From assembly GCF_003334355.1 (NCBI RefSeq), contig NZ_QOWP01000007.1: DNA of 64,000 bases; one strand, given 5' to 3'. The notes under the pieces were generated by a model. It was not told where the DNA came from. It did no database searches and saw only the letters and a program-made list of their open reading frames with translations. The stretch is from Escherichia coli. Lineage in GTDB: Bacteria; Pseudomonadota; Gammaproteobacteria; Enterobacterales; Enterobacteriaceae. Positions 6,357 through 50,779 of this stretch are shown here, in pieces. Within the stretch, counting starts at the first letter, position 1; each line of letters opens with the position of its first letter. Made by a program: the position numbers and the translations under genes.

Positions 6357-6962
6357 ATGAAATTGTTCTACAAACCGGGTGCCTGCTCTCTCGCTTCCCA
6401 TATCACCCTGCGTGAGAGCGGAAAGGATTTTACCCTCGTCAGTGTGGATTTAATGAAAAAACGTCTCGAAAACGGTGACGATTACTTTGCCGTTAACCCT
6501 AAGGGGCAGGTGCCTGCATTGCTGCTGGATGACGGTACTTTGCTGACGGAAGGCGTAGCGATTATGCAGTATCTTGCCGACAGCGTCCCCGACCGCCAGT
6601 TGCTGGCACCGGTAAACAGTATTTCCCGCTATAAAACCATCGAATGGCTGAATTACATCGCCACCGAGCTGCATAAAGGTTTCACACCTCTGTTTCGCCC
6701 TGATACACCGGAAGAGTACAAACCGACAGTTCGCGCGCAGCTGGAGAAGAAGCTGCAATATGTGAACGAGGCACTGAAGGATGAGCACTGGATCTGCGGG
6801 CAAAGATTTACAATTGCTGATGCCTATCTGTTTACGGTTCTGCGCTGGGCATACGCGGTGAAACTGAATCTGGAAGGGTTAGAGCACATTGCAGCATTTA
6901 TGCAACGTATGGCTGAACGTCCGGAAGTACAAGACGCGCTGTCAGCGGAAGGCTTAAAGTAA
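6357..6962 (+). CDS. gstA: Glutathione S-transferase GstA (201 aa)
   Basis: Track ORF; sequence recalled as E. coli GstA; length match. Confidence 0.92.
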
Positions 6963-6969
6963 TAGCCAT

Positions 6970-6993
6970 CGGCCCACAGGTCGTTGTGGGCCG
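6970..6993. terminator. Hairpin between convergent gstA and pdxY (possible bidirectional terminator)
   Basis: GGCCCACAGGTCGTTGTGGGCC inverted repeat. Confidence 0.55.
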
Positions 6994-7005
6994 AAATGAG
7001 ATATT

Positions 7006-7869
7006 TCAGAGCTTTGTTGCGCTGAAGTAATGTTCTGGTTTGGCAATACGATCCTGAGCAGCCACCACTTGCAGCTCATATTCCTGCATTGCTTTGGTGG
7101 TCACCATGATTTCGTAGACTGCAGCGGTCACATGTTCCAGCGCCTCCTGCAGCGTTGCCCCCTGAAGCAGTTTCACCAGCAGTAAACCGCTCGTCACATC
7201 ACCAACACCTACCGGCTGGCGCATACCAAAATCCACCAGCGGACGGCTGATATGCCAGGCTTCATCGGCGGTGACCAGCAGCATTTCAAAACGGTCACGG
7301 CTGTAGCCAGCTCGCGCCAGGTGTTTAACCAACACAATTTGTGGCCCTTGCGCAATGAGTTCGCGCGCTGCCAGAACCGCTTCTTCGACGTTATTTACCG
7401 CATGCTCACAGAGTATTTCCAGCTCAACCAGATTTGGCGCAATGATATCGCTGGCAGGCAAACCGTGCCGCACATGAAACTCTGCGACACCCGGTGCAAC
7501 GATACAGCCTTTTTCCGGATGCCCCATTACCGGATCGCAAAAATATTTCGCCTGCGGATTCGCGGCTTTCACCTGACGGACGATACCGAGGATATGTTCA
7601 CCCTGCTCCGCCGATCCCAGATAGCCACTTAATACGGCATCACAGGTGTGTAATTTATCAATGGCGGCAATGCCTTGCACAATTTCGGTTAAATGGCTGG
7701 GCGGCATCACGCAGCCAGTCCATTTGCCGTATTGGGTGTGATTAGAAAATTGAACGGTGTTCAGCGGCCAGACGTTCGCGCCCAGGCGGCGCATCGGAAA
7801 CTCTGCCGCACTGTTACCCGCATGACCATAAACAACGTGAGACTGGATAGCGAGAATATTTTTCATCAT
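7006..7869 (-). CDS. pdxY: Pyridoxal kinase PdxY (287 aa)
   Basis: Track ORF; downstream of tyrS on same strand; length match. Confidence 0.92.
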
Positions 7870-46985: not shown

Positions 46986-47195
46986 TCATTTTACCAGTGC
47001 GTTAATGACGGTTTCCATCGCCTGCTTTTCCAGCTCACTGCGCTGAATGCGTTTATTGGCTAATGCTGTACGTAATACGCCTGCGATAACAATATGCTTT
47101 GGTTCCTGCCCCAGATCGCGCATTTCCAGCACAACTTTACCGACAACTCTGCACATTTCTCGGTACAGTTCATCCTCTTTTGTCCGATTTCCCAT
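46986..47195 (-). CDS. fumD: Small protein FumD/YdhZ (69 aa)
   Basis: Track ORF; isolated in AT-rich surroundings; sequence recalled as YdhZ. Confidence 0.8.
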   Translation of the reverse strand: MGNRTKEDELYREMCRVVGKVVLEMRDLGQEPKHIVIAGVLRTALANKRIQRSELEKQAMETVINALVK

Positions 47196-47509
47196 TCTTT
47201 ATACCTATTTATCATGCCAACTATCAGCATATATCAATCTAACCAATTAAACAAAAATCAAACAAAATCAGACAAATAACGCGATAAATTATTTTAACTG
47301 TAGCAATTGAGCGATGATATATTTATACACCGGATGAACTTTCACTTATCCTCACACTGACAACTTCGGCACCAGACGTTGCGCAAACAGCGAAGTTTTT
47401 GCGTAACCTTTTCCCTGGAACGTTAAATCTTTGATAACAATTTATTGTCTAACAAGTTGTATATTTTTTGAAACGCTGTTTTTGTTTTCCTTTTGGATTA
47501 ATTTCAGCG

Positions 47510-47515
47510 TATAAT
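47510..47515 (+). promoter_or_regulatory. Candidate pykF promoter -10 hexamer TATAAT
   Basis: Perfect TATAAT about 240 bp upstream of pykF ATG; no clean -35 identified. Confidence 0.4.
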
Positions 47516-47530
47516 GCGCGCCAATTGACT

Positions 47531-47546
47531 CTTGAATGGTTTCAGC
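47531..47546. promoter_or_regulatory. Candidate Cra (FruR)-like site CTTGAATGGTTTCAGC
   Basis: Imperfect dyad TGAAT-GG-TTTCA resembling Cra consensus, just downstream of the -10. Confidence 0.35.
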
Positions 47547-47751
47547 ACTTTGGACTGTAGAACTCAACGACTCAAAAACAGGCACTCACGTTGGGCTGAG
47601 ACACAAGCACACATTCCTCTGCACGCTTTTTCGATGTCACCTATCCTTAGAGCGAGGCACCACCACTTTCGTAATACCGGATTCGCTTTCCGGCAGTGCG
47701 CCCAGAAAGCAAGTTTCTCCCATCCTTCTCAACTTAAAGACTAAGACTGTC

Positions 47752-49164
47752 ATGAAAAAGACCAAAATTGTTTGCACCATCGGACCGAAAACCGAATCTG
47801 AAGAGATGTTAGCTAAAATGCTGGACGCTGGCATGAACGTTATGCGTCTGAACTTCTCTCATGGTGACTATGCAGAACACGGTCAGCGCATTCAGAATCT
47901 GCGCAACGTGATGAGCAAAACTGGTAAAACCGCCGCTATCCTGCTTGATACCAAAGGTCCGGAAATCCGCACCATGAAACTGGAAGGCGGTAACGACGTT
48001 TCTCTGAAAGCTGGTCAGACCTTTACTTTCACTACTGATAAATCTGTTATCGGCAACAGCGAAATGGTTGCGGTAACGTATGAAGGTTTCACAACTGACC
48101 TGTCTGTTGGCAACACCGTACTGGTTGACGATGGTCTGATCGGTATGGAAGTTACTGCCATTGAAGGTAACAAAGTTATCTGTAAAGTGCTGAACAACGG
48201 CGACCTGGGCGAAAACAAAGGTGTGAACCTGCCTGGCGTTTCCATTGCTCTGCCAGCACTGGCTGAAAAAGACAAACAGGACCTGATCTTTGGTTGCGAA
48301 CAAGGCGTAGACTTTGTTGCTGCTTCCTTTATTCGTAAGCGTTCTGACGTTATCGAAATCCGTGAGCACCTGAAAGCGCACGGCGGCGAAAACATCCACA
48401 TCATCTCCAAAATCGAAAACCAGGAAGGCCTCAACAACTTCGACGAAATCCTCGAAGCCTCTGACGGCATCATGGTTGCGCGTGGCGACCTGGGTGTAGA
48501 AATCCCGGTAGAAGAAGTTATCTTCGCCCAGAAGATGATGATCGAAAAATGTATCCGTGCACGTAAAGTCGTTATCACTGCGACCCAGATGCTGGATTCC
48601 ATGATCAAAAACCCACGCCCGACTCGCGCAGAAGCCGGTGACGTTGCAAACGCCATCCTCGACGGTACTGACGCAGTGATGCTGTCTGGTGAATCCGCAA
48701 AAGGTAAATACCCGCTGGAAGCGGTTTCTATCATGGCGACCATCTGCGAACGTACCGACCGCGTGATGAACAGCCGTCTCGAGTTCAACAATGACAACCG
48801 TAAACTGCGCATTACCGAAGCGGTATGCCGTGGTGCCGTTGAAACTGCTGAAAAACTGGATGCTCCGCTGATCGTGGTTGCTACTCAGGGCGGTAAATCT
48901 GCTCGCGCAGTACGTAAATACTTCCCGGATGCCACCATCCTGGCACTGACCACCAACGAAAAAACGGCTCATCAGTTGGTACTGAGCAAAGGCGTTGTGC
49001 CGCAGCTGGTTAAAGAGATCACTTCTACTGATGATTTCTACCGTCTGGGTAAAGAACTGGCTCTGCAGAGCGGTCTGGCACACAAAGGTGACGTCGTAGT
49101 TATGGTTTCTGGTGCACTGGTACCGAGCGGCACTACTAACACCGCATCTGTTCACGTCCTGTAA
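47752..49164 (+). CDS. pykF: Pyruvate kinase I (470 aa); track ORF trimmed to [12 protein letters not shown] start
   Basis: Canonical PK N-terminus [20 protein letters not shown]; track ORF 47536..49164 is a 5' over-extension. Confidence 0.95.
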
Positions 49165-49193
49165 TATTGCTTTTGTGAATTAATTTGTATATC

Positions 49194-49220
49194 GAAGCGC
49201 CCTGATGGGCGCTTTTTTTA
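49194..49220 (+). terminator. Intrinsic terminator of pykF
   Basis: GAAGCGCCC/GGGCGCTT stem with TGAT loop, then T7. Confidence 0.85.
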
Positions 49221-49462
49221 TTTAATCGATAACCAGAAGCAATAAAAAATCAAATCGGATTTCACTATATAATCTCACTTTATCTAAGATGAATCCGATG
49301 GAAGCATCCTGTTTTCTCTCAATTTTTTTATCTAAAACCCAGCGTTCGATGCTTCTTTGAGCGAACGATCAAAAATAAGTGCCTTCCCATCAAAAAAATA
49401 TTCTCAACATAAAAAACTTTGTGTAATACTTGTAACGCTACATGGAGATTAACTCAATCTAG

Positions 49463-49711
<249 letters not shown>

Positions 49712-49731
49712 TAGTACCTGTGAAGTGAAAA

Positions 49732-49760
49732 ATGGCGCACATTGTGCGCCATTTTTTTTG
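49732..49760 (+). terminator. Intrinsic terminator of lpp
   Basis: ATGGCGCAC/GTGCGCCAT stem followed by T8; preceded by A5. Confidence 0.9.
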
Positions 49761-49774
49761 TCTGCCATTTACCG

Positions 49775-50779
49775 CTACTGCGTCGCGCGTAACATATTCC
49801 CTTGCTCTGGTTCACCATTCTGCGCTGACTCTACTGAAGGCGCATTGCTGGCTGTGGGAGTTGCTCCACTGCTCACCGCAACCGGATACCCTGCCCGACG
49901 ATACAACGCTTTATCGACTAACTTCTGATCTACAGCCTTATTGTCTTTAAATTGCGTAAAGCCTGCTGGCAGTGTGTATGGCATTGTCTGAACGTTCTGC
50001 TGTTCTTCTGCCGATAGTGGTCGATGTACTTCAACATAACGCATCCCGTTAGGCTCCACGGAATATTTCACCGGTTCGTTGATCACTTTCACCGGCGTTC
50101 CCGTCCGCACGCTGGAGAACAAGGCTTTAATATCCGGTGCATTCATGCGAATACACCCTGAACTGACGCGCAAACCGACGCTGTCCGGCGCACTGGTGCC
50201 ATGAATGAGGTATTCGCCATTACCATGCGCGAGGCGCAGTGCGTAACGTCCTAGTGGGTTATTTGGCCCGGCAGGGACGACTGGAGGTAATTTAATGCCA
50301 CGCTCCAGCGAACGCTGACGAATGCCTGCCGTAGGCGTCCAGGTTGGGTTAGGGATTTTCTGCCCCACACGCGTTTCCATCACCGGCGTTTCCAGCCCCT
50401 GCAAGCCAATACCTATCGGATAAACCTGCACGATATTTTCTCCCGGCGGATAATAATAAAGGCGCAGCTCTGCAAGGTTAACGATAATCCCCTGACGCGG
50501 CGCATCAGGTAATAACAGTTGCGAAGGAATAGTTATCGTCGTACCAGGTTTTGGCACCGGGGCGATAGTGTTATTGGCTTCAAGGATCAACATTGCCGCA
50601 GTATCAAAACGACGGGCAATAGCCTGAAGGTTTTTATCCCCTTCCTGCACCGTATACGTTTGATTTTGCCCAACCAGTCGGCTTCCGGTTGGTGGTAGCG
50701 GATAATCAACCGCCCAGGCAGCCTGGATGGCGCTAAAAGCGCCGATAAGCGTGAGTGTAAGCAAAGACGCGCGTTTCAT
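49775..50779 (-). CDS. ldtE: L,D-transpeptidase LdtE (YnhG), 334 aa
   Basis: Track ORF; signal peptide; LysM-like region; YkuD catalytic motif [20 protein letters not shown]. Confidence 0.92.

Follow-up and report, generated by a model that had tools for sequence, protein, structure and literature searches.

The stretch of Escherichia coli DNA analysed here (hereafter the window, 64,000 nucleotides (nt) long) carries the fumD (ydhZ)-pykF-lpp region between 46.9 and 49.8 kb, and our subject is the sequence upstream of pykF, the gene of pyruvate kinase I. We found there a distal promoter whose -10 hexamer is closely followed by an operator for the repressor Cra (FruR), and a leader that contains an annotated upstream open reading frame (ORF), ynhH. 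We regard it as very likely that the promoter and the Cra operator have been assigned correctly, and as probable that, taken as a whole, pykF is governed by a Cra-repressed distal promoter together with a composite translated leader. More tentatively, with a probability that we put somewhat short of even, ynhH may be an ancient, peptide-independent regulatory upstream ORF that gates the synthesis of pyruvate kinase from the Cra-controlled promoter.

The distal promoter and its Cra operator

A 1-kb query around the pykF promoter found a match in each of the 5426 complete E. coli genomes, the features annotated beneath it being fumD, ynhH and pykF, and promoter plus leader were at least 99% identical in 5420 of 5427 E. 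coli records. The same fumD-ynhH-pykF layout is present in an O121 strain and in the annotation of K-12 MG1655. From fumD through pykF, seven positions distinguish the window from K-12, the sole intergenic one being 47391, upstream of the promoter; because the two sequences are nearly identical here, publications on K-12 apply directly to the window. For comparison across the order, we assembled pykF with 1.5-kb flanks from 80 Enterobacterales species. The features of the promoter region and of the gene are the following, in window positions:

47468–47499, plus strand: upstream promoter block TTGAAACGCTGTTTTTGTTTTCCTTTTGGATT, kept in 39 Enterobacteriaceae leaders
47510–47515, plus strand: TATAAT, -10 hexamer of the distal sigma70 pykF promoter, from sequence and orthology
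47516–47523, plus strand: GC-rich discriminator GCGCGCC (47516–47522), then the distal start A47523, assigned by orthology
47531–47546, no strand assigned: Cra (FruR) operator CTTGAATGGTTTCAGC, 15 nt past TATAAT, +9 to +24 of the distal start
47752–49164, plus strand: pykF coding sequence, 470 codons plus stop; ATG at 47752 (RefSeq start), last base before the gene 47751

An earlier note, made from the letters of the window, had taken the TATAAT as a promoter element and the dyad 15 bp beyond it as a Cra-like operator. TATAAT alone is uninformative, with 14 copies in the window against 22.7 expected, and a consensus promoter scan passed over this site on account of its poor -35: the best candidate, TTCCTT at 47487–47492, matches the consensus at 2 of 6 positions and is separated by a 17-nt spacer from the perfect TATAAT. 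That the hexamer is a genuine -10 is borne out by the orthologous region of Salmonella. In the differential RNA sequencing (dRNA-seq) table of strain SL1344, a primary pykF transcription start site (TSS), enriched by terminator exonuclease (TEX) treatment and labelled 'Sigma 70 (-10)', lies 8 nt past the TATAAT. The promoter string given there, ...TATAATGCGCGCCA, whose end is also given as ...CAGCGTATAATGCGCGCCA, terminates at +1; the lpp row of that table served to verify that the last base of these strings is the +1. The Salmonella start sits 8 nt past TATAATGCGCGCC, which is identical in the window, and its transfer gave A47523 and a leader of 229 nt. An older prediction, listed as promoter pykFP with FruR as its regulator, had placed the start at -231 (47521). 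The SL1344 annotation in the Salmonella study starts pykF 18 codons late (at M19), so the 5′ untranslated regions (UTRs) of 283 and 152 nt listed there overstate the true 229 and 98 nt.

Reads at the distal start in Salmonella numbered 6 in the wild type and 43 in a relA spoT mutant (about 7-fold), and in the discriminator the CG at positions 2 and 3 is kept across families. Together with the perfect -10, the weak -35 and the GC-rich discriminator, these reads suggest that the distal promoter is under stringent control and probably sensitive to guanosine tetraphosphate (ppGpp). The same combination, with a start 8 nt past the -10, is found in growth-rate-dependent and stringent promoters of the rrn P1 type, a resemblance that we infer from the sequence and from one dataset. 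The upstream block at 47468–47499 contains a dyad-like TGAAAC-N3/4-GTTT(T/C), a T-rich tract and the weak -35. Its dyad-like part (47469–47483), at about -54 to -40 of the distal start, is kept in Enterobacteriaceae; the left half is a Cra half-site and the T-rich tract follows it, and the element could be a second weak Cra site, the site of another factor or an UP-like element. About 20 nt upstream of the TGAAAC block, many Enterobacteriaceae genera (loci L006, L009, L012 and L015 of our set, and others) carry the motif TGTGAAACTGCACAGA, with palindromic ends (TGTG...CACA), which is absent from E. coli.

The 15 bases GCGCGCCAATTGACT (47516–47530) separate the TATAAT from the operator CTTGAATGGTTTCAGC, whose core dyad TGAATGGTTTCA (47533–47544) has the half-site cores TGAA and TTCA correctly spaced. 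The 16-mer agrees at 14 of 16 positions with TTCTTGAAACGTTTCAGC, the fruB-proximal operator from Cra binding assays, only the two central positions being different, and at 12 of 16 with the published Cra motif gcTGAAtCGaTTCAgc (10 of 12 in the core). A single copy of the core dyad TGAAWSSWTTCA is present in the 64 kb, where 0.09 would be expected by chance, and the 16-mer consensus GCTGAAWCGWTTCAGC, with up to three mismatches, has four matches against 1.18 expected, the other three lying inside genes. These three are at 7493–7508, 38831–38846 and 42368–42383, the latter two in coding sequence (ydhR and the ydhU/ydhX junction), and the last one, TCTGAAACTGTTCAGC, retains both half-site cores.

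Conservation of the operator extends across the order. TGAA[AT]GG[AT]TTCAGC is found 213–281 nt before the pykF ATG in 78 of the 80 Enterobacterales loci, and in all 78 a -10 hexamer (TATAAT in 72, TATACT in 6) stands 13–16 nt upstream of the 16-mer, the gap being 15 nt in 48 of them. From Escherichia to Proteus, Xenorhabdus, Dickeya and Erwinia, the -10 and the operator at their fixed spacing form a strong phylogenetic footprint, and it is this comparison that decides the case for the site. The two loci lacking a proximal operator belong to a Plesiomonas metagenome-assembled genome (L063) and to Rosenbergiella (L067); the former carries a perfect palindrome, ACTGAATCGATTCAGA, 674 nt upstream of pykF, and in the latter no Cra-like site was found within 700 nt upstream of the gene.

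In published work, mutation of the Cra site in the pykF promoter de-regulated a green fluorescent protein (GFP) reporter (PpykF-gfp), which agrees with the operator-type dyad recognized in the earlier note. The literature also lists pykF as repressed by Cra, uses its promoter as a reporter of Cra activity and sensor of glycolytic flux, and reports that promoter activity follows the levels of fructose-1-phosphate (F1P) and fructose-1,6-bisphosphate (FBP). The site lies, as in the fruBKA proximal, pfkA and edd-eda operators, just downstream of the start and forms an imperfect 16-bp palindrome. Cra operators at or downstream of the start repress (Ramseier, Saier and co-workers). A span of +9 to +24 therefore fits the repression that the earlier note had invoked for an operator downstream of the -10. 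Compared with the Cra consensus, the central CG is GG in the pykF dyad; the GG variant is itself kept across the order, and nothing essential differs. The pykF promoter with its Cra operator is an already-known, textbook site.

The operator also accounts for the apparent start of a longer pykF frame:

47536–47751, plus strand: 72-codon in-frame extension of pykF (artefact); the 542-amino-acid ORF, 47536–49164, begins at an ATG inside the operator core TGAATGG

The earlier note had dismissed this ORF, and rightly so. One could suppose a real, N-terminally extended PykF in E. coli made from ATG 47536, which lies 14 nt from the distal start and opens a frame uninterrupted for 72 codons. Every solved E. 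coli PykF chain in the PDB, however, has 470 amino acids and aligns to residues 73–542 of the long ORF, in agreement with the RefSeq start at 47752. Apart from E. coli, E. albertii alone has the extension uninterrupted; stops break it in every other genus, Salmonella, Citrobacter and Klebsiella among them. Its ATG is simply part of the operator core. An extended PykF is extremely improbable, and the 542-amino-acid ORF is an artefact of ORF calling.

A second promoter within the leader

The leader contains a second promoter, located inside ynhH:

47595–47650, plus strand: near-invariant block GCTGAGACACAAGCACACATTCCTCTGCACGCTTTTTCGATGTCACCTATCCTTAG with the -10-like CTATCCT (47641–47647), proximal promoter
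47654, plus strand: proximal transcription start G, a Salmonella primary TSS and the E. coli '-97' 5′ end, giving a 98-nt leader

No part of the leader is better conserved than the block GCACACATTCCTCTGCACGCTTTTTCGATGTCACCTATCCTTAG. The -10-like element reads CTAT(C/T/A)CT in Enterobacteriaceae, Serratia, Yersinia, Hafnia and Erwiniaceae and TATACT in Pectobacteriaceae, and T1, A2, T3 and T6 of the hexamer are kept across families. In the Salmonella table a second primary TSS, labelled Sigma 38, lies 131 nt past the distal one and 7 nt past TATCCT, with a promoter string ending in ...CACCTATCCTTAGAGCG. A 5′ rapid amplification of cDNA ends (5′RACE) study of E. coli mapped 5′ ends at -97, -80 and -34, of which the -97 end (G47654) was rpoS-dependent, and in vitro transcription, with sigma70 as well as with sigma38, gave products corresponding to the -97 and -34 ends. 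A second promoter of the sigma38/sigma70 type, 131 nt downstream of the distal start, is thus well supported. Its short transcript starts within ynhH and does not contain the ynhH start codon. As in other tandem sigma70/sigma38 promoters of central metabolism, a regulated distal promoter is combined with a proximal one, here with CTATCCT, close to the sigma38 -10 CTATACT; what differs is that the proximal pykF promoter, 131 nt past the distal start, falls within an ORF that is probably translated. The two pykF promoters might interfere with each other transcriptionally. The -80 (47671) and -34 (47717) ends, which have no recognisable -10, flank the conserved hairpin described below and may be processing sites of longer transcripts.

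These mapped ends permit another reading, in which the TATAAT promoter does not work in E. coli, the -97, -80 and -34 starts are the ones used, and Cra acts from about 115 nt upstream with no downstream roadblock. The 5′RACE experiments, performed with glucose-grown JM101 and derivatives lacking the phosphotransferase system (PTS-), yielded these three ends and missed the distal start even with close primers. The conservation of CTATCCT across families and its use as a Salmonella primary TSS favour this reading as well. Further points tell against the distal promoter and operator as we draw them: the 5′RACE paper puts the Cra site 197 nt before the ATG, whereas the sole Cra-like site of the region spans -221 to -206, and direct binding of Cra to the exact 16-mer is attested at second hand. 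The distal start, however, is likewise a TEX-enriched primary TSS in Salmonella, and the 13–16 nt spacing between TATAAT and operator in 78 of 80 loci is understandable only as the mark of two elements that work together. In addition, the 5′RACE study itself raises the possibility that the -80 and -34 ends arise by processing of the longer mRNA. We consider exclusive use of the internal starts distinctly unlikely; it is only in this exclusive form that the reading fails, and probably both promoters, the Cra-repressed distal one and the proximal one, operate.

The leader reading frame ynhH and the pykF start region

The earlier note had described the sequence between promoter and gene as a long leader. 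With the start transferred from Salmonella it measures 229 nt; it is not a plain leader, for besides the proximal promoter it holds an annotated ORF and a covarying hairpin:

47550–47744, plus strand: ynhH (b4817), 64 codons, annotated by RefSeq in MG1655 and other genomes
47685–47710, plus strand: RNA hairpin GCUUUCCGG / CCAGAAAGC with an 8-nt loop, inside ynhH, 42–67 nt before the pykF ATG, from covariation
47717–47751, plus strand: pykF translation initiation region CTCCCATCCTTCTCAACTTAAAGACTAAGACTGTC, with no Shine-Dalgarno (SD) sequence; the '-34' 5′ end is at 47717

The ynhH frame begins with a TTG 3 nt past the operator and ends with a TAA 7 nt before the pykF ATG; in UniRef it is named Protein YnhH (RepID YNHH_ECOLI). 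We counted stop triplets in the leaders of 39 Enterobacteriaceae, between the invariant TTG and a point 25 nt short of the ATG. All 227 stops fell outside the TTG frame, 98 in one of the other frames and 129 in the other. Counted as distinct events, that is, by alignment column and triplet, they numbered 0 in the TTG frame against 23 and 24, with many of the distinct events in 47553–47596, a segment near substitution saturation. For the other families, we preset the frame by the first TTG, ATG or GTG past the operator in 28 representatives. In 22 of the 28 this frame was free of stops until at most 22 nt before the pykF ATG, or past it, and the remaining frames of these 22 contained 0–6 stops each. 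The start codon is TTG in Serratia, Yersinia, Hafnia, Edwardsiella and Xenorhabdus, ATG in Erwinia and GTG in Dickeya, Pectobacterium and Pantoea, and leader lengths differ between families by numbers that are not multiples of three. Overall, a leader ORF of 57–85 codons is open in Enterobacteriaceae, Yersiniaceae, Hafniaceae, Erwiniaceae, Pectobacteriaceae and some Morganellaceae.

The encoded peptide behaves differently from its frame. Variability at the three codon positions of ynhH was 0.224, 0.211 and 0.242, a flat profile without codon periodicity, whereas pykF, in 38 of these species, had 0.029, 0.009 and 0.21. From one family to another the open frame changes its register against the conserved nucleotide motifs, so that the operator is read as LNGFS or as VEWFQ and the 3′ end as PSQL, HHNL or SITT. 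As the frame is stop-free across families and variability is flat over codon positions, selection maintains an open ynhH frame without acting on the peptide, which is the signature expected if translation matters rather than the product.

A functional small protein YnhH, dependent on its sequence and co-expressed with PykF, would be the conventional interpretation of the RefSeq annotation and the UniRef name, and peptide motifs such as FRNTGL do recur in Enterobacteriaceae. These motifs, however, coincide with elements of the nucleotide sequence, namely the block of the proximal promoter and the flank of the hairpin. Third codon positions of ynhH are conserved like first and second ones, unlike in pykF, and the frame shifts against the nucleotide motifs from family to family; among NCBIfam families, none matched YnhH. 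We judge a sequence-dependent function of the protein to be highly improbable.

The pykF start itself is devoid of an SD sequence, and none of GGAG, GAGG and AGGA was present in the 45 nt before the ATG in any distinct Enterobacterales upstream sequence examined. The conserved start region reads ATCC(A/T)TC(A/T)CAACTT...AGA...ATG AAA AAG AC. C is abundant and G scarce in the leader, whose GC skew is -0.22 to -0.29 (about 0 to +0.2 in pykF), and as a whole the leader folds less stably than shuffled sequences (z = +1.93). One element in it is structured, the hairpin at 47685–47710. The segment from -80 to -30 had a mean z of -1.11, and the three segments upstream of it, beginning with the most 5′ one, had +0.23, -0.06 and -0.66. 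RNAalifold predicted 5 pairs, all with compensatory changes, and the covariation of the 8-pair hairpin was 0.379, compared to 0.204 ± 0.023 in shuffles (reached in 0 of 500) and to 0.05–0.15 when the partners were slid. Hairpins of unrelated stem sequence occupy the same position in most other genera. In E. coli the fold of 47685–47710 is nearly isoenergetic with an alternative.

We also considered this hairpin as a canonical terminator or attenuator and rejected it as such: in E. coli it is followed by AAGUUUCUCC, and in other genera a U-run, by eye count, stands about 8–12 nt away. A terminator scan gave nothing in the leader, and an Rfam search with E values up to 10 gave no match within 47196–47751. 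CsrA-type GGA motifs were not seen in the hairpin loop by eye, no dedicated search having been made.

The simplest alternative to a regulatory upstream ORF is an ordinary 5′ UTR, in which ynhH reflects pervasive or chance translation and the open frame results from the G-poor composition and common ancestry. A number of observations speak for such a UTR and weaken the case for a regulatory frame. The ynhH start is a TTG without an SD sequence, and a literature search gave no experimental basis for its annotation. The frame belongs to no protein family, and its codon positions show no periodicity. Within single leaders its openness was not significant against dinucleotide shuffles (median p 0.21); only the frame bias across species is significant. 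In Proteus, Budvicia and two Photorhabdus the open frame is lost, promoter and operator being retained. The coupling of pykF to ynhH cannot be obligatory, because genera without the upstream ORF, and the short transcript as well, also have a pykF start lacking an SD sequence. Finally, the 3′-end mapping supplements searched contained no premature 3′ end in the pykF leader. Composition, on the other hand, does not account for a bias between frames of the same leaders, whether stops (0, 98 and 129) or distinct events are counted, and the frame remained open in 22 of the 28 representatives although start codons and leader lengths change across families. On balance we regard a plain UTR as unlikely and continue with a leader that is probably translated.

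Several further observations concern the surroundings of the locus. Between fumD and pykF, the terminator scan gave a single match, a weak one that precedes the pykF promoter at 47377–47392 on the plus strand, where the terminator-like hairpin CGTTGCGCAAACAGCG is followed by AAGTTTTTGC. With regard to window positions 47196–47500, an IS1A element splits the match to 46900–47900 in some E. coli genomes (NZ_CP147050.1, NZ_CP139125.1); the features beneath the split match include an IS1A transposase, fumD, a DUF2767 family protein, ynhH and pykF. The 73.8-kb plasmid NZ_CP142917.1 of E. coli B19374 carries at 6778–7048 an 86.5%-identical copy of the promoter, the leader and the start of a pyruvate kinase gene, presumably from another genus of Enterobacteriaceae. 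At the pykF and lpp terminators (window 49034–49223 and 49720–49795), Rfam gave sub-threshold matches to GcvB (26.4 bits, with a gathering score of 42), RmaA, STnc320, STnc40 and sraA, which probably are look-alikes of terminator hairpins.

A proposed model for control through translation of the leader

At low glycolytic flux, Cra carries neither fructose-1-phosphate nor fructose-1,6-bisphosphate and occupies its operator, and the sugar phosphates release it. As established knowledge has it, operator-bound Cra would block the binding or the escape of RNA polymerase and pykF would be repressed. On the long, Cra-controlled mRNA, we propose that ribosomes start at TTG 47550 and traverse the whole leader. 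In doing so, they would cover the C-rich, G-poor and weakly structured RNA and might protect it from Rho and from RNases. The same ribosomes would melt the hairpin and finish ynhH at the pykF ATG or beside it; re-initiation on a start that has no SD sequence would thereby be favoured, and translation of pykF would in this way be coupled to that of ynhH. The effect of ynhH on pykF expression is inferred; gating could proceed by ribosome coupling onto the pykF start, by shielding of the C-rich leader from Rho, or by both.

Precedents exist for the separate parts of this model. Like coupled cistrons and Rho-shielding upstream ORFs such as that of topAI, the pykF leader ORF extends over the leader, and its end is no more than about 20 nt from the start of the gene or overlaps it. 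As in systems controlled by leader translation, the leader peptide is not conserved and the openness and position of its frame are, and the downstream gene lacks an SD sequence behind a C-rich, poorly structured leader. The tna and mgtA leaders are further examples of translated leaders. Unlike classical leader peptides, the pykF leader ORFs are, with 57–85 codons, much longer, and no regulatory codon run, stalling motif or terminator/antiterminator pair was found in them.

Our literature search gave no paper on ynhH and none joining pykF with an upstream ORF, and the combination of pykF with Shine-Dalgarno gave nothing new. Confirmation of the promoter and the operator adds nothing to the field, as this site is in the textbooks. 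The corrections that follow for the annotation are to drop the 542-amino-acid ORF, to annotate two promoters and to treat the leader as a translated segment. The additional layer, made of the positional conservation of the ORF, the internal promoter, the hairpin and the pykF start without an SD sequence, is not described in the searchable literature and represents new detail on a system of known kind. If it is true that the upstream ORF gates pykF, GFP fusions that contain the whole intergenic region would mix transcriptional effects of Cra with post-transcriptional ones. In that case, pyruvate kinase I would be added to the few enzymes of central metabolism under leader-translation control, and the output of pykF would be set by translational capacity in addition to glycolytic flux.

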